Part shown: piece by piece, positions 5,044 to 40,060 of the stretch
Layout of the letters: each line of letters begins with the position of its first letter
Numbering within the stretch: the first letter of the stretch is position 1
DNA from: an uncultured Candidatus Saccharibacteria bacterium
GTDB lineage: Bacteria; Patescibacteriota; Minisyncoccia; Phycocordibacterales; UBA10002
Assembly: GCA_964366535.1 (NCBI GenBank)
Contig: CAYIUC010000005.1
Location: 1 to 43,866 of the forward strand
Length of the DNA: 43,866 nucleotides
Direction of reading: 5' to 3'
Made by a program: the position numbers and the translations under genes
The notes under the pieces: generated by a model
Told to the model about the DNA's origin: nothing
What the model saw: the letters and a program-made list of their open reading frames with translations, nothing else
Database searches by the model: none

Positions 5044-5982
5044 ATGGAGGATGAAGTAAAAAAAGAAAATGCTCCGAGTGGCGCGCCGCGCGTGCGCACC
5101 TACGAGCGCGATGTAGCGGAGTTTATGGAGCGCGAGGGTGGGACTGCGGCGAAAATTGCGCTTGCGGAGCAAGAGAAAAGAATTGACCGAGAACAAAAAC
5201 CACCCCTCCTTCCAGAGCGCGATTTTTCTTTTCCTGCTCCCTACCCTTCGGGGAGGGCGGGGGGAGGGGTGGTCTCTATTCCATCTCCTTCCGCCGAACG
5301 CCTTCGCGTGTCTGCGCGAGTGCTTGTGTTATGGAGTATCGCACTGGTCTTCCTAGTGGGAGCAACGGGAATAGGATACTGGTATTGGAGCAACCTGCCG
5401 GAAACGGTGGCTGTTCTACCAACCACGCCAAACTCGAGTACGCAAAAAATACTGATTGCCGACGCGGAAAAGCAATTGAACACGGCACAGCTCACTCGCG
5501 ATTCGTTTATCGCCGCTTTCGCGCGCGAGCGAACATCCGCTTTAGCACTCTCTTCATTTACGCTTGTAGTACCTGTGGCGGCGCGCTCTCTCACAACCGC
5601 CGAATTCCTATCGCTTCTCAATGCTGGAGTAGACGGAACATTCGCGCGCGCGCTCGCGCCAGAGTTTGTACTTGGATTGCGCGGACTTCCGCAAAACCGC
5701 GCATTTCTCATTTTTAAAACCAATTATTATCAAACGGCGCTAGCCGGCATGCTACAGTGGGAAGATACGCTATTTAATGATGCTGGTCCGCTGTTTGGGC
5801 AAGCGATTGGAGGTGTGCAATTTGCCGACAAGACCATTAAAAACCGCGATACGCGCATACTTCTTGATTCTTCCGGAAAAACCTTGCTTATATGGGGGTT
5901 TGCAAACAAAGAAACCATTATTATAACAACAGATGAAGATACATTTACCCAAGTTATTGGAAAATTGGTGCAAACGGAGTAA
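5044..5982 (+). CDS. hypothetical single-pass membrane protein
   Basis: 312 aa with one hydrophobic helix (VLVLWSIALVFLVGATGIGYWYW). TATAAT at 5032-5037 lies 6 nt upstream of the ATG. The ORF contains a palindromic-element segment. Confidence 0.6.
   Translation: MEDEVKKENAPSGAPRVRTYERDVAEFMEREGGTAAKIALAEQEKRIDREQKPPLLPERDFSFPAPYPSGRAGGGVVSIPSPSAERLRVSARVLVLWSIALVFLVGATGIGYWYWSNLPETVAVLPTTPNSSTQKILIADAEKQLNTAQLTRDSFIAAFARERTSALALSSFTLVVPVAARSLTTAEFLSLLNAGVDGTFARALAPEFVLGLRGLPQNRAFLIFKTNYYQTALAGMLQWEDTLFNDAGPLFGQAIGGVQFADKTIKNRDTRILLDSSGKTLLIWGFANKETIIITTDEDTFTQVIGKLVQTE
5236..5273. repeat. G/C-rich palindromic element copy inside a CDS
   Basis: GCTCCCTACCCTTCGGGGAGGGCGGGGGGAGGGGTGGT is 34/38 identical to 22154-22191. 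Both are read in the same frame (..GRAGGGVV..). Confidence 0.85.
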
Positions 5983-10270: not shown

Positions 10271-10339
10271 ACCACCCCCTCTGTATCTCCCCCTTAATCA
10301 AGGGGGAGAAGCCCGAGCAGAGCGAGGGAGAGGGGGTGA
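10271..10339. repeat. nested G/C-rich palindromic element in the leader of the secreted-protein gene
   Basis: The outer arms CACCCCCTCT and AGAGGGGGTG pair perfectly. The inner hairpin is TCTCCCCCTTaatcAAGGGGGAGA. Confidence 0.85.
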
Positions 10340-12425: not shown

Positions 12426-12569
12426 CTCCCCCTCGGTTGAGGGGGAGTACTCCGACTTTAGTCGGAGGGAGGGGGTGGGTCAGCAAAACACCACCCCTCC
12501 GCTTCGCAGACTCAGCACCTCCCCTTAGGTAAAGGGCAGGTTAAAAGAGAGGCAGGGTGAGGGGGTGTT
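12426..12569. repeat. two adjacent G/C-rich palindromic elements
   Basis: 12426-12480 contains hairpins CTCCCCCTCggttGAGGGGGAG and CTCCGACtttaGTCGGAG. 12488-12569 has outer arms ACACCACCCCTC and GAGGGGGTGT. Both end in GAGGGGGTG. Confidence 0.8.
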
Positions 12570-15488: not shown

Positions 15489-16415
15489 CATGGGCACGGT
15501 CTGTGCTTGTGATGGTAGAGGGAAACATCCGAATACTGCATACATTAAACACGGGGCTCCTTGCGGTATGTAGCTTCCAAGCATAAATAGGGTAAACGGC
15601 GCATTGAAATTAAGAAACGCTTGCGAACCGGTGTAATGCGTCATTAGTGCAAGTGGTGGTACCGAAAGAGGTACCATACCAACTAGCCAGTTGCCGCTAC
15701 AGGTGCAAGGAAAAACATACACGACCATCCCTCCAAACCCGGGTATCTGCGCATCTGCGCGCGGCATAAGTGCGTCCGTAAGTTTCTGAAACAAAGATGT
15801 AACTCTATGCCGCCACGGCGACTCCCAAGAGATAGTACGCACATTTTTTCGCGACTCGCTTACAAATTGCGTAAGAAAGTCGGTTGTTGTAGCTAGGGCA
15901 AGCGAGCGCATGTCGCCCGCAAGTTTTTCCAATTCTTCCGCAGAGCGGCCTTGTTCTCCTCCAACTCGCTTAACTATTTCCAGAAATTGCTCCAGATTGC
16001 GCGAGTTTGGATTTTCTTTTTTTGTCTCTTCTCCTGCCCTTAACTTAAGGGGAGGTGCCCCGACGCTTTGGTCGGGGCGGAGGGGTGTTTTCTTTTCGTA
16101 TAAAAAAACATTCAGAGCCGCTAGGGTTTTTGGCCCAACCACTCCTAGTTCGCCCTTAATCGCATGCTCGCGTTGAAACACCGCGACCGACCTTGCCGTG
16201 GCAGCGCCAAAATAATTTGTTTCCTTGCTAGGCGAGCCAGCACCGGTATTAGCAACGCGCGTTTCCGCTCGTTCGTTCAAAAGTCTCTGGAGAGCGAACA
16301 CATCGGGGCCGCGCGAACCAAATTGGAGATCGCGCGCAAAGCGCCATTCTCCTGCATACGCGGGCTGAAACGCCACGACACACAAAATAGCGGATATAAA
16401 TACGCGAGACATCAT
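15474..16415 (-). CDS. secreted protein with a PG_binding_1-like peptidoglycan-binding domain
   Basis: Signal peptide MMSRVFISAILCVVAFQPAYA and the motif GSRGPDVFALQRLLN...YFGAATARSVAVFQ. It contains an in-frame palindromic element. Its 3' end overlaps rsmA by 15 nt in convergent orientation. Confidence 0.65.
   Translation of the reverse strand: MMSRVFISAILCVVAFQPAYAGEWRFARDLQFGSRGPDVFALQRLLNERAETRVANTGAGSPSKETNYFGAATARSVAVFQREHAIKGELGVVGPKTLAALNVFLYEKKTPLRPDQSVGAPPLKLRAGEETKKENPNSRNLEQFLEIVKRVGGEQGRSAEELEKLAGDMRSLALATTTDFLTQFVSESRKNVRTISWESPWRHRVTSLFQKLTDALMPRADAQIPGFGGMVVYVFPCTCSGNWLVGMVPLSVPPLALMTHYTGSQAFLNFNAPFTLFMLGSYIPQGAPCLMYAVFGCFPLPSQAQTVPMLGTS
16031..16089. repeat. G/C-rich palindromic element inside a minus-strand CDS
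   Basis: CCCTTAAcTTAAGGG and GCCCCGACgctttgGTCGGGGC hairpins followed by GGAGGGGTGTT. On the minus strand it is translated as ..RPDQSVGAPPLKLRAGEE.. Confidence 0.8.
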
Positions 16416-17446: not shown

Positions 17447-17526
17447 CAACCCCTCCTGCCTCCCCCAAGGGGAGGTTCTGACCCTCCCTTCCCTTTGGGG
17501 AGGGAGTAGGAGGGAGGGGTGGTGTG
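17447..17526. repeat. nested G/C-rich palindromic element
   Basis: Hairpins CCTCCCCcaaGGGGAGG and CCCTCCCttccctttGGGGAGGG lie within CCCCTCCT...AGGAGGGAGGGG arms. The element ends in GGGGTGGTG. Confidence 0.8.
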
Positions 17527-21658: not shown

Positions 21659-22702
21659 ATGAAATTTACACATACACAAGCCCTAGAATCTCTTAACAAA
21701 CTCCCGCAAGAGACGCGCGAGCGCGTCACTTCGCAAGAAATAACCGACGCGACTATTCGTATCGCGGAAAGAAATGTAGTTCCAAAAGAAAAGATCCTTG
21801 CTTTTAGTTCTGCAGTAGGAACTGTACTACTCGGTTTGATTCAAAAAGAAAAACTTGCCGAGCAGTTGGTTGCAGAGTTGCAACTGCCGCCAGAAAAAGC
21901 CGCCGCGATTGCGGGGGAGGTGGAGAAAGAGATTTTTAATAGTTCTCCCTCTGCCCCTTTTTCAAAGGGGAAGTCCCCGAGTCCGTCTAAGGCGGACGAG
22001 GGGGTAGGGGTTGGTCACGCACAAGGCATACCCCTCCGCCCCGCCCCGCCAGTCGGCGAGGCGGGGCACCTCCCCTCTCAAAGAGGGGAGGGGGAACAAA
22101 AACAAATTTCTCCCCCTCGCCCCGTCCCCATCCGCAAGCCACTACCCCCTCTTGCTCCCTCCCTTTTGGGGAGGGCGGGGGGAGGGGTTGTACCCTCTCT
22201 CCAATCCCTCCTCGCCGACATTCGCCGCGGCACGGCATACGACGAGAATCGTATAGCCGATGCCTTCCGAAAAACGCCGATTGAAGTCAAGCAGTCGCTA
22301 GAGAGTGTCGGGTTTCTATCACGAATGGAAGGCGTTGCGAAAAAGTTTGGTTTAAATGTGGAAGAAACTGGGGAGCTCGTGAGCGAGTCGGGGCTCGTAA
22401 TGCTCGGGCTAACACAACCAATGAACTTCGTAGACAATCTCACGAAACGATTGCGACTGCCGCGCGACCGCGCGATGGCGGTAGGGCAAGCGGTAAATAT
22501 GGAGGTACTGCGCCCAGTGCGGGAAATTTTGCGGAAGATGAGTGTGCCGTCGGAGGAGCTGCGATTTGCGCCGCCCGCCACCCCTGCTCCTTCACAAAAT
22601 CCTCCCCCAACCCCCTCCTTTAGTAAAGGAGGGGGCGGAGGGGGCGGATTTTCTCCAGTGCAAAAATACACTACCGACCCCTACCGCGAACCAATAAACT
22701 AA
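21659..22702 (+). CDS. hypothetical protein with two homologous ~60-aa modules separated by a repeat-element-derived Pro/Gly linker
   Basis: IAERNVVPKEK...GTVLLGLIQ...LQLPPEKAAAIAGEV aligns with VAKKFGLNVEE...GLVMLGLTQ...LRLPRDRAMAVGQAV. The linker at 21945-22191 consists of palindromic elements. Confidence 0.6.
   Translation: MKFTHTQALESLNKLPQETRERVTSQEITDATIRIAERNVVPKEKILAFSSAVGTVLLGLIQKEKLAEQLVAELQLPPEKAAAIAGEVEKEIFNSSPSAPFSKGKSPSPSKADEGVGVGHAQGIPLRPAPPVGEAGHLPSQRGEGEQKQISPPRPVPIRKPLPPLAPSLLGRAGGGVVPSLQSLLADIRRGTAYDENRIADAFRKTPIEVKQSLESVGFLSRMEGVAKKFGLNVEETGELVSESGLVMLGLTQPMNFVDNLTKRLRLPRDRAMAVGQAVNMEVLRPVREILRKMSVPSEELRFAPPATPAPSQNPPPTPSFSKGGGGGGGFSPVQKYTTDPYREPIN
21945..22191. repeat. 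three tandem G/C-rich palindromic elements, in frame in a CDS
   Basis: Copies at 21945-22016, 22031-22097 (opposite arm order) and 22108-22191. Each contains CCCC...GGGG hairpins. Confidence 0.8.
22596..22652. repeat. 57-nt nested palindrome (AAAATCC-type element) in frame in a CDS
   Basis: AAAATCCTCCCCCaaCCCCCTCCTTTAgTAAAGGAGGGGGcgGAGGGGGcGGATTTT. It is translated as NPPPTPSFSKGGGGGGGFS. Confidence 0.85.
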
Positions 22703-22703
22703 T

Positions 22704-23105
22704 ATGAAGTATCAGACACCGCAATTTATAGACATAGAAGACAAGCTATTTGGGCCGTTTACGGTCAAACAATTCATCTACCTAGTCGGTGGAGCTGGAC
22801 TTTCGTTTATCGCATATCGTTTTTTGCCGACCGTTATAAATATAATCGTCATCCTGCCGATTGCCGCACTCGCACTCGCACTCGCGTTTTGGAAAATCAA
22901 CGGCAAACCGTTTGTGTTTATCTTAGAATCCGCTATTCGTTATTACTTCTCCGACAAGCTCTACCTCTGGCGCAAGGTGCCTAAAACCATGTTGGCAAAG
23001 AGTGTCGCGCCAAACGCCCCCCCAACAATACCGAAATTAAATGAAGGCAAGTTGCGCGACCTCACTTGGACGCTAGACATTTCGCATACGACAACGCGAA
23101 AGTAA
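22704..23105 (+). CDS. PrgI-family-like (VirB3-like) small two-TM protein
   Basis: FIDIEDKLFGPFTVKQFIYLVGGAGLSF followed by a second helix. The start is 1 nt after the upstream stop. Confidence 0.6.
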   Translation: MKYQTPQFIDIEDKLFGPFTVKQFIYLVGGAGLSFIAYRFLPTVINIIVILPIAALALALAFWKINGKPFVFILESAIRYYFSDKLYLWRKVPKTMLAKSVAPNAPPTIPKLNEGKLRDLTWTLDISHTTTRK

Positions 23106-35833: not shown

Positions 35834-37036
35834 ATGGAGAAAATAAATACTAATAGGATAGCAATAGAACAGGCCACAGAACGAAGCATCGCGACGATCT
35901 TACCTTCGCGTGAGGCGCTCATAAACGAATTGATGAGCGGAAAGAAAATGAAGTTTTACATTGGATGCGACGCAACGGGTCCAGATTTGCACATAGGGCA
36001 TGCAACAAATTTTCTTTTGCTTGAACGTTTGAGGAAACTTGGCCATGAAATCATTGTTCTCTTTGGAGATTTTACTGCGCGCATTGGAGACCCTACAGGG
36101 AGAGATACGGAACGCAAAATGCTTTCTGAAGCAGAGGTGGGGGAGAATATATCGAATTGGACACATCAGGTTGGCCGTGCGCTTAATTTAAATGATGCGC
36201 ATAATCCTGTGCGCATAGAAAAAAATAGTTCGTGGTTGGGGAAACTTGGTTTTGCAGAAGTGCTTGATCTCGCATCTTCGTTCACCGCACAGCAAATGAT
36301 TGAGCGCGACATGTTCGAGAAAAGGTGGAAGAATAAAAAACCGATTTATCTGCACGAGTTTTTGTATCCATTAATGCAGGGCTATGACAGTGTTGCGCTT
36401 GGGGTGGACGGTGAAGTGGGGGGGAACGATCAGACATTCAATATGTTGACCGGCAGAACATTGCTCAAGAAATACAAAAACACAGAAAAGTTTGTGATTG
36501 CAACAACGCTCTTAATCAATCCAAAGACGGGGAAAAAGTTGATGAGTAAAAGCGAAGGCCGATATGTCGCTCTCTCAGCGACGCCGCATGATATGTTTGG
36601 CGGTGTAATGGCTCTCCCAGATGAGGCAATCAGCCAGTTATTTATTGACTGCACCGAAGTTCCAATTACTGAAGTTGGACAATGGGAACAAAAATTAAAA
36701 GACGGCGTCAATCCACGCGATGTCAAAATACACCTTGCTACAGAAATAGTGACTCGTTTCCATAGTCGAACAGACGCCGAGAAAGCGCGCGCAAGCTTCC
36801 GCGCAACATTTGGCGAAGGCAGGCCACAGGAGTTTGTAGATGTGCCGCAAGCAAGCGCAGTGGAAACACTTCTTGAAAATGGGATTATTACTTCAAAGAC
36901 CGACCTACGCCGACTCATTGCAGAGGGTGCGGTAACAGAAGTCGGAAGCGGCAAAAAGCAGGGGGAGGATTTTCTGAAAAATCCTCCCCCTGGGGAATAC
37001 CGGCTCGGCAAGCACCGCTTTGTGCGGATTGTTTAG
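35834..37036 (+). CDS. tyrS: tyrosine--tRNA ligase
   Basis: HIGH motif (LHIGHATN), KMSKS-like motif (KLMSKSEG) and a C-terminal S4-like domain. I prefer the start MEKINTN at 35834, with TACTAT at 35821-35826 lying 7 nt upstream. The track ORF starts at 35825. Confidence 0.85.
   Translation: MEKINTNRIAIEQATERSIATILPSREALINELMSGKKMKFYIGCDATGPDLHIGHATNFLLLERLRKLGHEIIVLFGDFTARIGDPTGRDTERKMLSEAEVGENISNWTHQVGRALNLNDAHNPVRIEKNSSWLGKLGFAEVLDLASSFTAQQMIERDMFEKRWKNKKPIYLHEFLYPLMQGYDSVALGVDGEVGGNDQTFNMLTGRTLLKKYKNTEKFVIATTLLINPKTGKKLMSKSEGRYVALSATPHDMFGGVMALPDEAISQLFIDCTEVPITEVGQWEQKLKDGVNPRDVKIHLATEIVTRFHSRTDAEKARASFRATFGEGRPQEFVDVPQASAVETLLENGIITSKTDLRRLIAEGAVTEVGSGKKQGEDFLKNPPPGEYRLGKHRFVRIV
36961..36990. 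repeat. perfect 13-bp-stem palindrome inside tyrS, related to the AAAATCC-type element arms
   Basis: GGGGGAGGATTTTctgaAAAATCCTCCCCC, which encodes GEDFLKNPPP. Confidence 0.8.
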
Positions 37037-37175
37037 ATTGCCTCGTCTTCGCTCTCGTCTCCAATTTCTGGAGCCGTTTCCTCCTCTTCTTCCACACTTA
37101 AAATCGGATCCAATTGTTCTTCATCCATACCTCTTGTAGGTTATCTTATAAAAGGTACGGGATAGTTGTAACAGA

Positions 37176-37679
37176 TTAGGTTTTCTTTGCAACATGCTCG
37201 CTTGTGGAAAACTTTTCAGTGGCGAGACAAGTTAGGCCTATCGCGAGCGCGTCGTATTCGTCGTCTAGGCGTTTCTTTTTTGAGAGAGGAACAAGTTTCT
37301 GCACCATTTCGGTAACTTGCTTTTTGTCGCTCTTGCCGTAACCCGTCACCGCTATTTTGATTTGGAGCGGCGTGTATTCAAAAATCTTTAGTCCTGCGCG
37401 CGCGGCCTCGTAGAGTACGACGCCGCGCGCTTCCGCTACTTTCATTGCTGTTTTTTGGTTAGAGAATAGAAACAGGGTTTCTATAGCAAGCGCGTTTGGT
37501 TTCCATTTTCGTATCGCATCTTGTACCGCGCCGCCTATTGTCGCGAGCCGCTCGCCGTGCGTTTGTTTTTTGTCGGTAATAGCGCACGCAGAAAAAAGTG
37601 CAATCTCTTGCCCGTTCTGTTTTTCCAGCACTGCAATTCCCAATCTGTCATACCCTGGATCTATAGCGAGCACGCGCAT
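37176..37679 (-). CDS. ruvC: crossover junction endodeoxyribonuclease RuvC
   Basis: MRVLAIDPGYDRLGIAVLE start with catalytic acidic residues in context. TACACT lies 6 nt upstream on the minus strand. Confidence 0.9.
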   Translation of the reverse strand: MRVLAIDPGYDRLGIAVLEKQNGQEIALFSACAITDKKQTHGERLATIGGAVQDAIRKWKPNALAIETLFLFSNQKTAMKVAEARGVVLYEAARAGLKIFEYTPLQIKIAVTGYGKSDKKQVTEMVQKLVPLSKKKRLDDEYDALAIGLTCLATEKFSTSEHVAKKT

Positions 37680-37836
37680 ATTGGTAGTGTAGCAAGTTAT
37701 CGGGCGGTTTTTAAATCCATCCCCCGGCCCCTTCCTTTACAAAGGAAGGGGAAAAATGCAACACACAGGAACATTAATTAAATCTTTACTATAAAACATA
37801 TATTTTATATAATGTAGAAATTAAAAGTTAAAAAAA

Positions 37837-38064
37837 GTGAGTATGAATAATTTTGCAAAAGAGCAAACGAATAAAGAAGTTGTAGGTTTTGGTAGGGTTT
37901 TGAGAGGTTTTCTTATATTTTGTGTTATTTGGTGGGTATTGATGGGCTTTTCTATTATATTTATATCCCCAAATATATGGTTAGCTGGGGTTGTTTTCTT
38001 GGCGGGTGCAGGATATCTTGGATACCGTTTGTGGGGGAAGAAAAAGAATAAAATTGTTAGTTAG
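37837..38064 (+). CDS. small two-TM membrane protein (islet gene)
   Basis: 75 aa with the hydrophobic helices FLIFCVIWWVLMGFSIIFI and LAGVVFLAGAGYLGY. AT-rich codon usage. Confidence 0.45.
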   Translation: MSMNNFAKEQTNKEVVGFGRVLRGFLIFCVIWWVLMGFSIIFISPNIWLAGVVFLAGAGYLGYRLWGKKKNKIVS

Positions 38065-38070
38065 AGTAAT

Positions 38071-38427
38071 ATGGTTCTCATCTACAACCAAAAACTTAAA
38101 CCCAGAGCCCGTGAATTAAGAAAAAATCAGACACCCGCAGAAGCGTTGTTGTGGGAACAAATCAGAGGTAAAAAAATTAAAAATTGCCAATTTGTTAGGC
38201 AAAGAGCGATCGCTAGTTTTATTGTTGATTTTGTGTGCCTACAGTCAAAGTTGGTGATAGAAATTGACGGACCAATTCATCTGCAACATAGAAACACCGA
38301 TACTTTTCGTCAGGAACAACTAGAGTTGCTCGGATTTAGAGTTTTGCGTTTTTCTAATAAAGAAGTTGAGGCAGATATTAACTCAGTGATTGGAGTGATT
38401 GCTTGGAATTTAAATCCAACCTCCTAG
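38071..38427 (+). CDS. DUF559 / Vsr-like endonuclease-domain protein (islet gene)
   Basis: Contains RELRKNQTPAEALLWEQIRGKK...QFVRQ...IVDFVC...LVIEIDGPIH...R...L...GFRVLRFSNKEV. Its last codons run into the flanking repeat. Confidence 0.7.
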   Translation: MVLIYNQKLKPRARELRKNQTPAEALLWEQIRGKKIKNCQFVRQRAIASFIVDFVCLQSKLVIEIDGPIHLQHRNTDTFRQEQLELLGFRVLRFSNKEVEADINSVIGVIAWNLNPTS

Positions 38428-38474
38428 CCCCCCTTCCTTTATAAAGGAAGGGGGGGTGGGGGGATGGATTTTTC

Positions 38475-39008
38475 TCATTCTGCGTTGGTGAAAACCTCTT
38501 GCACATCTTCGTATGCTTCCAGTTTTTCTACTAGTGCAGATAGTTTTGCAAGGTCTTCGTCGGAGAGCGGGGTAGTGGTCGTTGGTTTCCATCCGTCCGC
38601 CGTTTTCTCAAACGCCCACGCCGCGGCGCCTGGCCCAGCCAAGTTGCCGCCATTTTCCGATAGTAGGTGTTTAATTTCTTGCGAGACGCGATTTCGGCTA
38701 TCGGTGAGCACTTCTATAATAAGCGCCACACCGCCCGGCCCGTACGCTTCGTAGCGCACTTGTTCTAACGCCGCGCCGCCGCCCTCCTCCGTCGCTTTCT
38801 TAATTGCGCGCTCAATGTTGTCGCTCGGCATATTTTCCTTACGCGCGCGCTCTATGGCGGCGCGGAGCGCCGGAGCGTTTTTGTCGCCTTTCGCGCGCCG
38901 TGCTTCGTCTCCAATCAGTCGCGCGAACTTGCTAAACACGCGGCTCTTAACCGCATCGGTTTTGCCTTTTTTCTCTTTTATCTGACTCCATTTGTTGTGT
39001 CCGGACAT
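38475..39008 (-). CDS. yebC: YebC/PmpR family protein, shortened form
   Basis: MSGHNKWSQIKEKKGK start, YEAYGPGGVALIIEVLTDSRNR, and C-terminal EDVQEVFTN. At 177 aa it is shorter than the roughly 240 aa typical of the family. TATAAT lies 8 nt upstream on the minus strand. Confidence 0.85.
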   Translation of the reverse strand: MSGHNKWSQIKEKKGKTDAVKSRVFSKFARLIGDEARRAKGDKNAPALRAAIERARKENMPSDNIERAIKKATEEGGGAALEQVRYEAYGPGGVALIIEVLTDSRNRVSQEIKHLLSENGGNLAGPGAAAWAFEKTADGWKPTTTTPLSDEDLAKLSALVEKLEAYEDVQEVFTNAE

Positions 39009-39053: not shown

Positions 39054-39491
39054 ATGAGTGTTGTATATATTGATCGTCGCGCGAGTTATGGTTTCCCTGA
39101 CTGGGTATTACAGTGGGAAATGCACGATTTGCAAAACAATGGCCCGGAATCAATCAATTTGAAAAAATTAGGCGCGTTCACTAACCCACAAGACCAGCAT
39201 AGCCGGTTGGTCACTGGGCGCGTTCTTTTTGCGCATCTTAGACAATCTGGTCTTATAACTAATTGTCTCAACATTCAAGATGCAAAATCTCTCATGGCGG
39301 ACTCAATTTTTCGTAAACCGCCCTTTACGGGTACACGGACGCTCTTGTGGAAATCAACGGTATTGGGTATGTGCAGAAACCTGTATGTTCCATATATACA
39401 GAACATTTTCGGACAAACGCCAATAATTTACTACTACTGGCTTGAGTACCAAGTGAATCTTGATGTTCATTGGGGGTTATTAAACCCGTGA
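39054..39491 (+). CDS. hypothetical protein (orphan, lower GC)
   Basis: 145-aa ORF. Unlike its neighbours it has an AAGGA Shine-Dalgarno-like site about 6 nt upstream of the ATG, and it is followed by a clear terminator. Confidence 0.45.
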   Translation: MSVVYIDRRASYGFPDWVLQWEMHDLQNNGPESINLKKLGAFTNPQDQHSRLVTGRVLFAHLRQSGLITNCLNIQDAKSLMADSIFRKPPFTGTRTLLWKSTVLGMCRNLYVPYIQNIFGQTPIIYYYWLEYQVNLDVHWGLLNP

Positions 39492-39502
39492 ACAAAATCA
39501 AA

Positions 39503-39530
39503 AGCACCCGCAGCAATGCGGGCTTTTTTA
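39503..39530. terminator. bidirectional intrinsic terminator
   Basis: AGCaCCCGCagcaatGCGGGCT hairpin flanked by AAAA on the left and TTTTTT on the right. It lies between convergent genes. Confidence 0.7.
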
Positions 39531-39534
39531 TTTC

Positions 39535-39807
39535 CTACCAATGTAATTTATAAATCCAGTCGTGCGGGCCAACAGTCAGTAGAAGCGCAGTTTTACCATC
39601 AAGAAATCTGAATGCGATGCGGTACCGGCGGTCAATGCGGAATGTCCACCGCGCCTTTTCTTTCGGCTCAAGTTTTTCAGTGTTCAGCGAAGGATGAAAA
39701 GGGTTAATGGAAAACAGCCCTTGTTGTTTGGTCGCTTTCTGTTGGATTTCGTTCGGTAACGAGCGGAAACGGCGTTCAAACTCTTCGGTGGCTAATAATA
39801 TAATCAT
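39535..39807 (-). CDS. RelE/ParE-superfamily toxin
   Basis: 90 aa from MIILLATEEF. The pattern F..RFRSLP...NPFHPSLNTEKLEP...WTFRIDRRYRIAFRF....LLLTVGPHDWIY is typical of the family. The longer track ORF start at 39888 would overlap the antitoxin gene. Confidence 0.65.
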   Translation of the reverse strand: MIILLATEEFERRFRSLPNEIQQKATKQQGLFSINPFHPSLNTEKLEPKEKARWTFRIDRRYRIAFRFLDGKTALLLTVGPHDWIYKLHW

Positions 39808-39814
39808 AATCTGC

Positions 39815-40060
39815 TTAGCGCGCGAGCGTTCGTAGCGAAGAAATTCTGCGCACGCGCCCGGCGCGGTAGTCAGCCTCGGCGCGCTCAACGCTGTTTAGAA
39901 AATCCGGATTAAACATTTCAAAAGCCGCTGCCATTTTTTCCAAACGGTCAGCATCCATTTCCACCACAACCCTCTTCGTGGTCTTCGTTGTTTTTTGTTT
40001 TATATTAAGCGTTAAAGTCATACAGCCATCATAGCATATTTTTTTATTTGTATCTATCAA
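39815..40060 (-). CDS. putative antitoxin
   Basis: Small ORF of 81 aa, or 68 aa from MTLTLNIK at 40021. It ends 7 nt before the toxin start and begins directly after the ruvB stop. Confidence 0.5.
   Translation of the reverse strand: MIDTNKKICYDGCMTLTLNIKQKTTKTTKRVVVEMDADRLEKMAAAFEMFNPDFLNSVERAEADYRAGRVRRISSLRTLAR

Follow-up and report, generated by a model that had tools for sequence, protein, structure and literature searches.

BoxC, PIT and TM repeats have been recognised in E. coli since the 1990s and are present in hundreds of genomes, yet we know of no established function, origin or protein partner for these repeats. The large nuclease family DUF559 has a solved structure but no role that we are aware of. 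In REP/REPIN-RAYT (TnpA-REP) systems, a single-copy nuclease gene sits between inverted short palindromic repeats that are also dispersed over the genome, and the REP repeats themselves occur solo, as inverted pairs and in clusters. The seg and mob homing genes of phage T4 are intergenic nuclease genes between conserved phage genes, present or absent, tied to their site and in some instances possibly carrying a promoter. REPs and BIMEs are summarised in the same paper that describes the BoxC/PIT/TM repeats as multi-copy elements of many phyla, found singly or as inverted pairs at variable loci (Holder et al. 2015, PMC4666352). In these repeats a pyrimidine stem and a purine stem enclose a loop, and a second, short loop (often TTA, CTA or CCG) leads into a G-rich third strand that mirrors the purine stem; triplex formation was demonstrated for TMECO oligonucleotides only, and no mobility or nuclease gene was found near the repeats (PMC4666352). 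Finally, I-Bth0305I is a Vsr-like (EDxHD) homing endonuclease whose gene lies inside a group I intron and which was shown to cut the intron-less allele (PMC3239194, PMC2677866).

In the window (the whole stretch of 43,866 nucleotides that was analysed), an insertion with precise boundaries (37683-38476, 794 bp) splits the normally contiguous, translationally coupled yebC-ruvC pair. Both host genes lie on the minus strand and are spaced by 795 bp: yebC (38475-39008, 177 aa; Pfam TACO1_YebC_N and Transcrip_reg) is upstream of the insert and ruvC (37176-37679, 167 aa; Pfam RuvC, E = 4e-37) downstream of it, the RuvC protein scoring 157.9 bits against the NCBIfam equivalog model NF000711, slightly under its curated cut-off of 163. 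The insert was delimited against the empty allele of the closest relative, L007 (RuvC 94%, YebC 98% identical), whose contiguous junction aligned by blastn with both sides of the insert (window 37000-37682 with L007 521-1206, and 38477-38984 with L007 1207-1711), leaving the boundary ambiguous by 2-3 nt. In this comparison the insertion had cost the L007-type junction no bases, we found no target-site duplication at the insert boundaries, and there was no co-conversion tract beside the junction, the adjoining 60-nt flanks being 98% and 95% identical. A second relative, L008, is also empty, and in both empty alleles the ruvC ATG and the yebC stop are separated by 1 nt (CAT-A-TTA), a spacing shared by most other Parcubacteria. 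Besides, yebC is directly upstream of ruvC in about 64 of 80 more distant relatives, and none of the 80 RuvC relatives from metagenomes carried the cassette. In four groundwater metagenome runs, with low-depth contigs only, no reads or contigs joined across the insert. A preliminary description of this locus had proposed that an AT-rich insert of foreign composition splits the gene pair, which is borne out by the empty alleles and by a GC content, in 200-nt windows, of 0.28-0.40 within the gap vs 0.49-0.62 in the flanks. We also recovered in place its gap of about 800 bp with an open reading frame of 75 aa and a DUF559 gene on the plus strand.

The same junction holds unrelated inserts in other lineages: in L170 and L185 a 23S-IVS-type protein (PF05635) accompanied by AT-rich inverted repeats, in L165 a Fic-like protein, and in L142 and L157 other open reading frames.

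At its ruvC side, the insert carries a left end unit (37710-37751, minus strand). This triplex-motif repeat comprises a hairpin (37728-37738/37741-37751) with 11-bp arms, one all-pyrimidine and one all-purine (CCCCTTCCTTT/AAAGGAAGGGG), and a third strand (37714-37724; GGGGGATGGATT on the minus strand) that points towards ruvC; the triplex-unit detector returned a stem of 11, a third strand of 11 and a mirror match of 11/11. The right end unit (38409-38473, plus strand), found by repeat search, unit detector and fold, is a double-armed version with a degenerate C-rich arm (38412-38424), a hairpin (38428-38440/38443-38455) with all-pyrimidine and all-purine arms of 13 bp (CCCCCCTTCCTTT/AAAGGAAGGGGGG) and a G-rich third strand (38458-38470); here the detector gave a stem and a third strand of 13, with GGGGGGATGGATT matching reversed AAAGGAAGGGGGG at 13/13 positions. 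The third strand mirrors the purine arm, with G opposite G and A or T opposite A. The linker TAG (38425-38427) of the right unit is the DUF559 stop codon, the last codons of that gene (AAT TTA AAT CCA ACC TCC TAG) fall within the right repeat, as had been stated before, and the T run after the third strand abuts the yebC stop. An intrinsic-terminator scan called neither end unit. The sequence TTTTTCT stands directly after the right unit.

The two units share a 24-nt hairpin, CCCCTTCCTTTAYAAAGGAAGGGG, at 37728-37751 and 38430-38453 (23/24 identical), and TTTAAATCCAWCC is found at 37710 and 38409, whereas only the right copy continues into GGGGGGATGGATTT, which yields a 60-nt palindrome (38412-38471; 87% complementary, DNA fold -25.6 kcal/mol, z = -6.7). 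The preliminary description was thus right in placing repeat copies at 37710-37751 and 38409-38455 with the complementary arm only on the right, but it took them for direct copies. Their sequence fits better with a pair of cassette end units in inverted orientation, third strands outward; the direct appearance comes solely from the self-complementary hairpin core and from the degenerate second arm of the right unit. The hairpin core CCTTCCTTTAYAAAGGAAGG had no further match in the window at up to three mismatches (0 expected by chance). There is, though, a third full unit of the repeat family at 22597-22655, AAAATCCTCCCCC-hairpin-GGGGGCGGATTTT, with another stem subtype (CCCCCTCCTTT...; fold -22.5 kcal/mol, z = -5.5), lying in frame inside an open reading frame (21659-22702). 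Altogether, the detector found seven triplex units in the 43.9 kb of the window vs 0.05 in shuffled sequence, and most of the dispersed units have arm sequences unlike those of the cassette units.

How the repeats came to flank the insert had been explained by integration into, and partial duplication of, a nested palindrome already present at the junction, with the expectation that an empty site would hold a single complete palindrome. The right copy is indeed a complete nested palindrome and the left a partial one, and solo complete units exist elsewhere (at 22597-22655 in the window, and between rpsE and rplO in L033). Against this explanation, which we now regard as hardly credible, the empty sites turned up as predicted but consist of the 1-nt junction with no palindrome in either L007 or L008, and none of the 80 RuvC relatives has a repeat unit there. 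Nor is the second, supposedly duplicated, arm present in the right units of L009 and L011, and the left units of different genomes are closer to each other than to the right unit of their own genome. Since the empty alleles lack the palindrome, the repeats arrived together with the insert.

Judged by sequence, the cassette repeats belong to the BoxC/PIT/TM intrastrand-triplex family, sharing its C-rich/G-rich hairpin and mirror third strand. Across 132 units taken from many genomes, the third-strand base follows that of the stem in 127, and the family is dispersed over at least 119 loci in many phyla and at many unrelated junctions, as solo units and inverted pairs. The preliminary description had held that independent copies at many unrelated junctions would speak against its interpretation, and such copies do occur, in many phyla and elsewhere in the window. 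Compared with the E. coli elements, the window units (CCCCTTCCTTT/AAAGGAAGGGG/GGGGGATGGATT) contain A/T and do not match the TMECO consensus (CCCTCNCCC N3-6 GGGNGAGGG N3 GGGNGAGGG, with arms CCCTCNCCC/GGGNGAGGG): the geometry is the same, the sequence subfamily a different one. Further differences are that the cassette units form the two ends of a gene cassette, unlike TMECO units, and that the unit at 22597-22655 lies in frame within an open reading frame, while TMECO units were reported to be always intergenic (PMC4666352). Other identities were considered and rejected. The Rfam matches, all to generic miRNA hairpin models, stayed below threshold, and therefore no known RNA family applies. 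Sequestration of a Shine-Dalgarno sequence was considered for the CCTCC-subfamily hairpin (AAAGGAGG paired to CCTCCTTT), but the window units are of the GGAAGG subtype, and the covariation of the third strand is better matched by the triplex-motif description than by ribosome-binding-site sequestration. Likewise, the unit ends (AAATCCA.../...TGGATTT) lack the GTTRRRY/RYYYAAC core expected of an integron attC site, with no adjacent IntI integrase, and an IS or MITE is disfavoured by the content of only two open reading frames, no transposase and no target-site duplication.

The conserved core of the cassette is the DUF559 gene (38071-38427, plus strand), which encodes a single-domain protein of 118 aa. 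It matches PF04480 at E = 6e-34 (116.6 bits vs a cut-off of 20.6) and PDB 3HRL at E = 3.5e-16, while the DUF559 family profile matches PDB 3R3P (I-Bth0305I) at E = 7.5e-5, in keeping with the placement of VSR, DUF559 and 3R3P in one group (PMC3424549). The protein has every invariant residue of the family (T21, E24, W28, Q44, D53, E64, D66, G67, D77, R80, R93, F94), and the core D53, E64, D66, H70, D77 and R93 occupies columns that are invariant or near-invariant in 37 homologues. The protein thus qualifies as a DUF559 member and predicted nuclease of the Vsr-fold PD-(D/E)XK type. PHROGs matches in the cassette search were to families of unknown function only, PADLOC gave a weak match to methyl-directed restriction enzymes (E = 0.002), and the cassette contains neither a methyltransferase nor another defence partner. 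In the literature we found no published DUF559 activity, on triplex repeats or otherwise.

This predicted nuclease invites comparison with homing enzymes. It shares its catalytic fold and clade with I-Bth0305I, whose gene likewise resides in an insertion present or absent at one precise site of conserved genes (PMC3239194, PMC2677866). I-Bth0305I is a longer, intron-encoded protein (PMC3239194), whereas the putative nuclease of the window has 118 aa and is free-standing, intergenic and enclosed by repeat ends. As in free-standing homing genes, the insertion that carries this nuclease-family gene occupies one precise site between conserved sequences in some genomes and is missing there in others; yet the seg and mob genes belong to the GIY-YIG or HNH type, occur in phages and have no terminal repeats, unlike the DUF559 cassette. 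With REP/RAYT systems, the locus has in common that a nuclease gene is flanked by inverted, dispersed palindromic repeats. The gene itself is no RAYT, given a DUF559/Vsr fold of the PD-(D/E)XK type rather than HUH Y1, and a third-strand arm takes the place of the REP GTAG tag, so that the resemblance is functional at most.

Between the host genes and the nuclease gene lie further candidate elements. An extended -10 box that faces outward (TGCTACACT on the minus strand, 37686-37694) stands 6 nt upstream of the ruvC ATG. When the six cassette-bearing lineages were aligned, each had TGnTAnAnT at a distance of 6-7 nt from the ruvC ATG, from which we infer a promoter for a leaderless ruvC mRNA. A candidate inward sigma-70-like promoter for the cargo and DUF559 genes (TTTACT-17-TATAAT, 37785-37813, plus strand) matched the consensus at 10 of 12 positions, in a scan in which promoter-like sites were no more numerous than in shuffled sequence. 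It precedes an orphan cargo gene of 75 aa (37837-38064, plus strand; gene callers start at ATG 37843, giving 73 aa), whose product has hydrophobic stretches that, judged by eye, resemble two membrane helices. Of the two open reading frames that had been put forward for HMM searches, only the DUF559 one found a family; the cargo protein had no match in Pfam, NCBIfam, PADLOC or PHROG. A search of 5.8 billion proteins found a single homologue of it, the cargo protein of the L017 cassette (72% identity).

Five further Parcubacteria lineages carry the cassette at the yebC|ruvC junction (L006, L009, L011/12, L013-16 and L017-20). Their DUF559 homologues are 63-74% identical, and all those with readable context lie between ruvC and yebC in an orientation opposite to both; the next homologues, at 52% identity or less, belong to other phyla. 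The order of elements is outward -10 box, left unit, candidate inward promoter, variable cargo slot, DUF559 gene and right unit. The slot, between left unit and DUF559 gene, is empty in L006 and L011, holds a membrane-type open reading frame in the window and L017, and encodes a SET-domain protein in L013. The non-coding layout of TGnTAnAnT box, left unit and right unit is kept across hosts whose RuvC proteins are only 52% identical, the right unit abuts the yebC stop across cassette-bearing lineages, and the left units of the window and L006 are identical at 41 of 42 nt.

In all lineages the cassette is AT-richer than its host, and in four hosts of about 50% GC the GC3 of DUF559 (0.29-0.42) lies below that of ruvC and yebC (0.50-0.62); a profile of GC and codon usage was among the checks suggested by the preliminary description. 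That description had also named, as a finding that would count against it, relatives carrying the same genes with native composition; DUF559 is indeed at the site in relatives, but its composition there is non-native. Moreover, on the sequences compared, DUF559 divergence does not scale with host divergence. Between the window and L009, RuvC is 52%, YebC 57% and DUF559 74% identical, whereas between the window and L006 the corresponding values are 82%, 84% and 65-68%. Similarly, L009 and L011 (hosts 80-88%) have the same DUF559 identity of 75% as L009 and L017 (hosts 52-54%).

These data bear on the question of whether the cassette is simply an old resident that entered once in a deep Parcubacteria ancestor and descended vertically, with DUF559 as a fast-evolving, AT-biased accessory gene and the empty alleles stemming from recombination with cassette-free relatives. 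A bootstrapped neighbour-joining tree of six DUF559 sequences has a roughly host-like topology, grouping L009 with L011 (62%) and L006 with L013 and the window (46%), and conflicts clearly with the host tree only in joining L006 and L013 (81% vs 1%). L009 and L011 also share clearly orthologous non-coding cassette sequence, and DUF559 GC3 partly follows the host (0.17 in a host of 33% GC, 0.42 in one of 51% GC). With a topology that is mostly host-like, it is the distance ratios and the composition that argue for horizontal spread, rather than a clean topological conflict. However, vertical descent would require many independent, base-perfect restorations of the 1-nt junction, one of them between genomes about 90% identical. 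It would also leave a flat DUF559 identity of 60-75% across a host range of 46-88%, and a GC3 still 0.15-0.27 under that of the host genes despite the supposed very long residence. We therefore regard a single ancient entry as rather unlikely.

Our preferred explanation, to which we would give about an even chance, is a compact, self-contained, nuclease-driven mobile cassette whose ends are its cognate triplex repeats. The cassette would have entered the translationally coupled yebC|ruvC junction, and its DUF559 nuclease may recognise and cut the triplex-motif ends of the cassette or, alternatively, the empty junction. Repair by recombination could then copy the cassette into empty alleles in a homing-like manner, which would explain the fixed site. 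The outward -10 box would restart ruvC, severed from yebC, as a leaderless transcript. The units might also punctuate the DNA structurally where convergent or divergent transcription units meet, a role made doubtful by earlier work, summarised in PMC4666352, in which PIT elements had neither promoter nor terminator activity in E. coli. What speaks against this reading is that the junction has no co-conversion tract beside it, that no reads or contigs joined across the insert in the low-depth metagenome contigs, that the DUF559 tree is roughly host-like and that a single-domain nuclease of 118 aa is small for a long, unique homing site.

Alternatively, the cassette might be a passive islet at a permissive or fragile recombination hotspot open to any small gene; its hairpins would then be terminators or insulators of a generic kind, and DUF559 a nuclease acting alone in restriction or defence. 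The unrelated inserts at this junction in five other lineages (L142, L157, L165, L170, L185) would fit such a hotspot, as would the association of triplex motifs with local genome rearrangement in E. coli (PMC4666352), and the weak PADLOC match would suit a nuclease of this type. We nonetheless consider it improbable, because the full cassette architecture is kept in distant hosts, a defence partner is absent from the cassette, the terminator activity of PIT elements was reported to be absent and the pairing of DUF559 with triplex units is specific across phyla.

This pairing extends well beyond the yebC|ruvC junction. At least one triplex unit was found within about 300 nt of 23 of 29 DUF559 loci, against a background of 0.006 units per kb, so that the search for other DUF559 copies flanked by the repeat, recommended at the outset, was fruitful. 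The 29 loci come from Parcubacteria, Absconditabacterales, Proteobacteria, Deinococcus, Cyanobacteria, Chloroflexi and Syntrophales, and at the sequence level DUF559 genes in general are bracketed by triplex units. Conversely, DUF559 genes were near only 3 of 119 triplex-unit loci and 1 of 18 E. coli sites. The latter is ycjD, a DUF559 gene 168 nt from TMECO no. 9. Together with its triplex unit, ycjD occupies a fixed slot between fabI and sapF, a slot that in other lineages is filled by eefRABCD, genes that were lost on two or more occasions (PMC12817139). Host, unit sequence and alternating genes all differ from those of the cassette, and PMC12817139 offers no mobile-cassette interpretation. 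Among evenly sampled E. coli genomes, the 37 ycjD-positive ones had 11-24 unit matches (median 17) and the 23 ycjD-negative ones 1-15 (median 3; two each in UTI89 and Nissle), a contrast confounded by lineage. Match counts were 14-24 in most ycjD-positive genomes, 11-13 in the three whose ycjD is most divergent, and 12 in O157:H7, which lacks ycjD.

An asymmetric link of this kind is reminiscent of RAYTs and REPs, with most DUF559 genes near units and most units without DUF559. DUF559 could accordingly be a domesticated single-copy gene that spreads, trims or resolves dispersed triplex repeats, its position between yebC and ruvC being incidental; this overlaps and is compatible with the mobile-cassette reading. 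The E. coli medians, within the limits of that lineage confounding, point in the same direction, as does the contrast between the 7 units in 43.9 kb of the window and the 2 units in 309 kb from related genomes that lack the cassette. On the other hand, no further triplex units were present in 26.7 kb around five other cassettes, and therefore a link of the cassette to dispersed units was not seen there. Most dispersed window units also differ in arm sequence from the cassette units, and the constant, single junction of this DUF559 clade is left unaccounted for. Taken on its own, we judge such a partnership unlikely.

A broader idea, which we put forward tentatively and hold to be possible rather than probable, is that DUF559 may be the long-missing protein partner of BoxC/PIT/TM repeats throughout bacteria, a nuclease that would recognise the triplex-capable structure and create, move or erase units and cassettes. 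Recognition of the structure by DUF559 would account for triplex-motif loci being rearrangement hotspots. We found no link between DUF559 and triplex repeats in PMC4666352 or the other papers searched. If true, there would be a DUF559-triplex system, analogous to REP/RAYT yet built on a Vsr-fold nuclease and a non-B (triplex) DNA element, to which the Parcubacteria cassette between yebC and ruvC would belong as an autonomous member faithful to its site. With the physical coupling in 23 of 29 loci, two long-standing puzzles, the triplex repeats and DUF559, merge into one hypothesis testable in E. coli K-12 with ycjD and TMECO no. 9. For genomes of the candidate phyla radiation, the locus illustrates how a tiny selfish cassette can split a coupled operon, apparently compensating by an outward promoter. 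Even the conservative reading alone leaves a clean, well-delimited, site-specific cassette polymorphism in uncultured bacteria.

The neighbours of the cassette in the window are ruvC, yebC and tyrS. The last of these contains a palindrome of its own (36963-36992); the length of this stretch is unchanged compared with four relatives, and the palindrome therefore arose in place and not by in-frame insertion.

The window derives from an uncultured member of the Parcubacteria (candidate phyla radiation) whose genes recur on three assemblies from a groundwater well, the nearest named RuvC being that of 'Parcubacteria group bacterium Gr01-1014_17'. As described preliminarily, ruvC (37176-37679) and yebC (38475-39008) both lie on the minus strand and are set apart, by 795 bp, and the AT-rich gap (GC 0.28-0.40 vs 0.49-0.62 in the flanks) holds two plus-strand ORFs, one of 75 aa with hydrophobic stretches and one encoding a DUF559 protein (PF04480, E 6e-34). 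Each border carries TTTAAATCCAWCC followed by the hairpin CCCCTTCCTTTAYAAAGGAAGGGG, and solely the right copy extends into GGGGGGATGGATTT to give a 60-nt palindrome. In the closest relative found (L007; RuvC 94% and YebC 98% identical), sampled at a different well in this aquifer, a single nucleotide separates the ruvC start from the yebC stop (...GCGCAT-A-TTATTCTGCG...) and there is no palindrome; the arrangement in L008 (GCA_007376285.1) is the same. The blastn alignment of the window with L007 ends at 37682 and restarts at 38477, while the L007 sequence is contiguous there, which defines an insert of 794 bp with exact boundaries and no target duplication. The proposed insertion thus proved correct. 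Besides, scanning metagenome contigs by RuvC alignment returned 80 relatives (45-82% identity), in about 64 of which yebC immediately precedes ruvC, in most cases by 0-200 nt, and none of the 80 carries DUF559 or the repeat at this junction. Together with the palindrome-free empty alleles, this contradicts the further proposal that the DNA had integrated into, and partly duplicated, a pre-existing nested palindrome: the repeats arrived with the insert.

The yebC-ruvC junction is an insertion hotspot. In other Parcubacteria, the gap holds unrelated inserts, namely a gene for a PF05635 '23S rRNA intervening sequence protein' between AT-rich inverted repeats (L170, L185), a Fic-like 362-aa gene (L165), a membrane ORF (L142), or a 189-aa ORF adjoining the hairpin CCCCTCTCCTTGACTAAGGAGAGGGG (L157). 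At 177 aa, YebC itself is short in the window; against YebC models of ~245 positions it matches 1-137 and, in addition, a C-terminal piece, and every relative examined shows the same (176-184 aa). The region past yebC is strain-variable (window 39054-39888 vs 2218-3185 of L002, an otherwise identical contig): the window and the contig L003 have a 117-aa HigB-like ORF (39535-39888, weak Pfam match) where L002 has ORFs of 90 and 68 aa before ruvB.

The ten closest DUF559 homologues share 63-74% identity with the window protein (the next best, from other phyla, at most 52%), and all those with readable context (L006, L009, L011/12, L013-16, L017-20) lie between ruvC and yebC, antisense to both. 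Read in window orientation, the cassette-bearing lineages have a common architecture: the ruvC ATG; an extended -10 box (TGnTAnAnT) on the ruvC strand, 6-7 nt past this ATG; AAAATCCAYCCCC, joined to a hairpin by a linker of 1-3 nt; a variable stretch; the DUF559 gene; a hairpin, linker and GGGGRTGGATTTT; and the yebC stop, 0-5 nt away in five of six lineages. From the position of the -10 box, transcription would start at or beside the ruvC ATG, and the predicted promoter may replace the translational coupling of yebC and ruvC broken by the insertion. The variable stretch is empty in L006 and L011, encodes a SET-domain protein in L013 and a different small ORF in L009, and in the window and L017 contains an orphan membrane ORF; these two versions are 72% identical, and no further homologue was found among 5.8 billion proteins. 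Additional partial arm copies occur immediately outside the left unit in L006 (3950-4003, AAAATCCATCCCCGTTCCCCC...) and L013 (2560-2620, TTTTTAAATCCACCTACACACC...); they may be traces left by repeated events or by cargo turnover at the left end.

The flanking element falls into an already described class of repeats, variously called BoxC, PIT (potential intrastrand triplex) element or TM/TMECO motif (Holder et al. 2015, PMC4666352). In this motif a pyrimidine stem, a loop and a purine stem are followed, after a short second loop, by a third strand rich in G; the motif is present in 23 copies in E. coli K-12 and in more than 260 genomes, forms triplexes in vitro, and has been linked to loci with local rearrangement (PMC4666352). 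The 'arm' in the window is this third strand: GGGGGGATGGATT of the right unit is the mirror image of the purine arm AAAGGAAGGGGGG at 13/13 positions, with G facing G and either A or T facing A, and the left unit matches at 11/11 positions on the other strand, so that both third strands are directed outwards. A pattern derived from twelve cassette ends and scanned on one genome per GTDB species, with about 0.1 chance matches expected from the number of specified bases, hit at least 119 loci, often several per genome, in Omnitrophota, Deferribacterales, many Patescibacteria, Dehalococcoidales, Methylococcaceae, Acinetobacter, Psychrobacter, Smithella, Sericytochromatia and others, with units arranged solo, in tandem, head-to-head or tail-to-tail. 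The stem pair left unspecified by this pattern is C-G or T-A in 130 of 132 units, and the arm base follows it in 127, a correlation that comes largely from there being two subfamilies and not from numerous independent changes. Seven triplex units occur in the window (0.05 in shuffled sequence), against two in 309 kb of related loci.

The association of DUF559 with such repeats extends well beyond this junction. Where the pattern scan hit loci bearing DUF559 (L073 twice, L087, L135), the gene abuts the units, and in three of three distant homologues picked by taxon (Methylomonas, Dehalococcoidia, Syntrophales) units lie within tens of nucleotides of the gene ends. Among IMG/VR contigs, C-rich hairpins border five of seven close homologues (E below 1e-30) and none of 24 distant phage DUF559-like genes. 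By eye, hairpin repeats flank all nine of E. coli ycjD and eight complete-replicon matches (Synechocystis, Picosynechococcus, Deinococcus, Pseudanabaena, Azospirillum, Sinorhizobium, Neisseria gonorrhoeae, Sphingomonas); a strict detector called units in seven of these, missing Picosynechococcus and Pseudanabaena, whose cyanobacterial units are too short for it. With this detector, 23 of 29 loci had at least one unit within ~300 nt of the DUF559 gene, against a background of 0.006 per kb. Another conserved gene pair, sufB and sufC, is divided by such a cassette on a plasmid of Sphingomonas parapaucimobilis (NZ_CP155753.1, 112110-113409), where each end of the DUF559 gene has a unit. The unit 168 nt from ycjD, in the stretch 1346000-1354000 of E. 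coli K-12, is TMECO no. 9 in Holder's Table 1. According to a recent study, the position between fabI and sapF that ycjD fills is precisely that of eefRABCD in other E. coli, an operon lost on at least two occasions (PMC12817139). C-terminal tails like ...SPL..GEG in many DUF559 proteins are the translated downstream unit.

The gene belongs to a known, uncharacterised nuclease family, which sequence comparison places in the Vsr clade of PD-(D/E)XK nucleases (PMC3424549). The family profile matches PDB 3HRL (E 1.7e-36) and I-Bth0305I (3R3P, E 7.5e-5), a proven homing endonuclease (PMC3239194), and the window's protein retains the conserved acidic and histidine residues of the family. Since DUF559 is the cassette's one conserved protein and the same repeat class lies beside it in bacteria of very different kinds, the simplest hypothesis is that it recognises and nicks triplex units or the structures these adopt. 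For this cassette, recombinational repair of breaks that the nuclease makes, either in the units or in the empty junction, would carry the module to alleles that lack it. In another reading, the nuclease might service dispersed repeats, much as in REP/RAYT systems. Two observations support this: the DUF559-unit association is asymmetric, and TM-unit matches number 11-24 per genome in ycjD-positive E. coli (n=37) versus 1-15 in ycjD-negative strains (n=23; UTI89 2, Nissle 2, O157:H7 12), with medians of 17 and 3 in an evenly spread sample. However, this contrast tracks strain lineages, so that it is suggestive only and not independent evidence, and no additional units were found near the other five cassette loci. 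What is new is the discrete cassette with its fixed site, predicted outward promoter and cargo slot and, most importantly, the coupling of DUF559 with triplex repeats in general, which joins two long-standing puzzles in a single hypothesis open to testing; a full-text literature search found no paper tying DUF559 or ycjD to triplex repeats.

Several observations argue for mobility of the cassette. In four hosts of ~50% GC, DUF559 has a GC3 of 0.29-0.42 against 0.50-0.62 in flanking genes; it comes nearest to the host value in the AT-rich hosts L009 and L011. Its identity stays flat at 60-75% whatever the host distance: 74% between the window and L009 (RuvC 52%, YebC 57%), 65-68% between the window and L006 (82%, 84%), and 75% both between L009 and L011 (80%, 88%) and between L009 and L017 (52%, 54%). 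The cassette is also scarce among relatives and absent from the nearest one. On the other hand, a bootstrap neighbour-joining tree of six DUF559 sequences resembles the host topology, the sole clear conflict being the pair L006 and L013 (81% in the DUF559 tree, 1% in the host tree), no co-conversion tract was found beside the junction, and no empty-allele joints appeared in the low-depth contigs of four public runs. On balance, the cassette more probably spread horizontally into a fixed site than entered once in the distant past and was then lost, base-perfectly, many times.

Further units lie elsewhere in the window. An ORF of 347 aa without Pfam match (21659-22702), followed by the gene for a PrgI-family protein (22704-23105), contains several in-frame C-rich hairpins or triplex units, especially at 21951-21973, 22067-22093, 22155-22186 and 22597-22655, the last a full unit encoding ...SQNPPPTPSFSKGGGGGGGFSP... 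This is reminiscent of Rickettsia palindromic elements, which reside inside genes, and differs from the TMECO units of E. coli, reported as always intergenic. A second, GC-richer subfamily forms intergenic composites of one or two C-rich hairpins between arms CACCACCCCTCC and GGAGGGGTGGTG at no fewer than five sites in 44 kb (5239-5257, 10274-10309, 12426-12541, 16033-16055, 17450-17506). Within the coding 3' end of tyrS (...GEDFLKNPPPGE...), 'arm' sequence forms a perfect 13-bp inverted repeat (GGGGGAGGATTTT-CTGA-AAAATCCTCCCCC, 36963-36992); an insertion was rejected here, as the length is unchanged in alignment with four relatives, and the repeat thus arose in place. Finally, a contig of Candidatus Taylorbacteria (MHSA01000001.1, 4215-4249) bears a solo double-armed unit of the cassette's subfamily, which overlaps the 3' end of an S5 (rpsE)-like ORF just ahead of an L15 (rplO)-like one, both named by eye from their translations; it therefore sits within an operon of ribosomal proteins, where a terminator would be unlikely.
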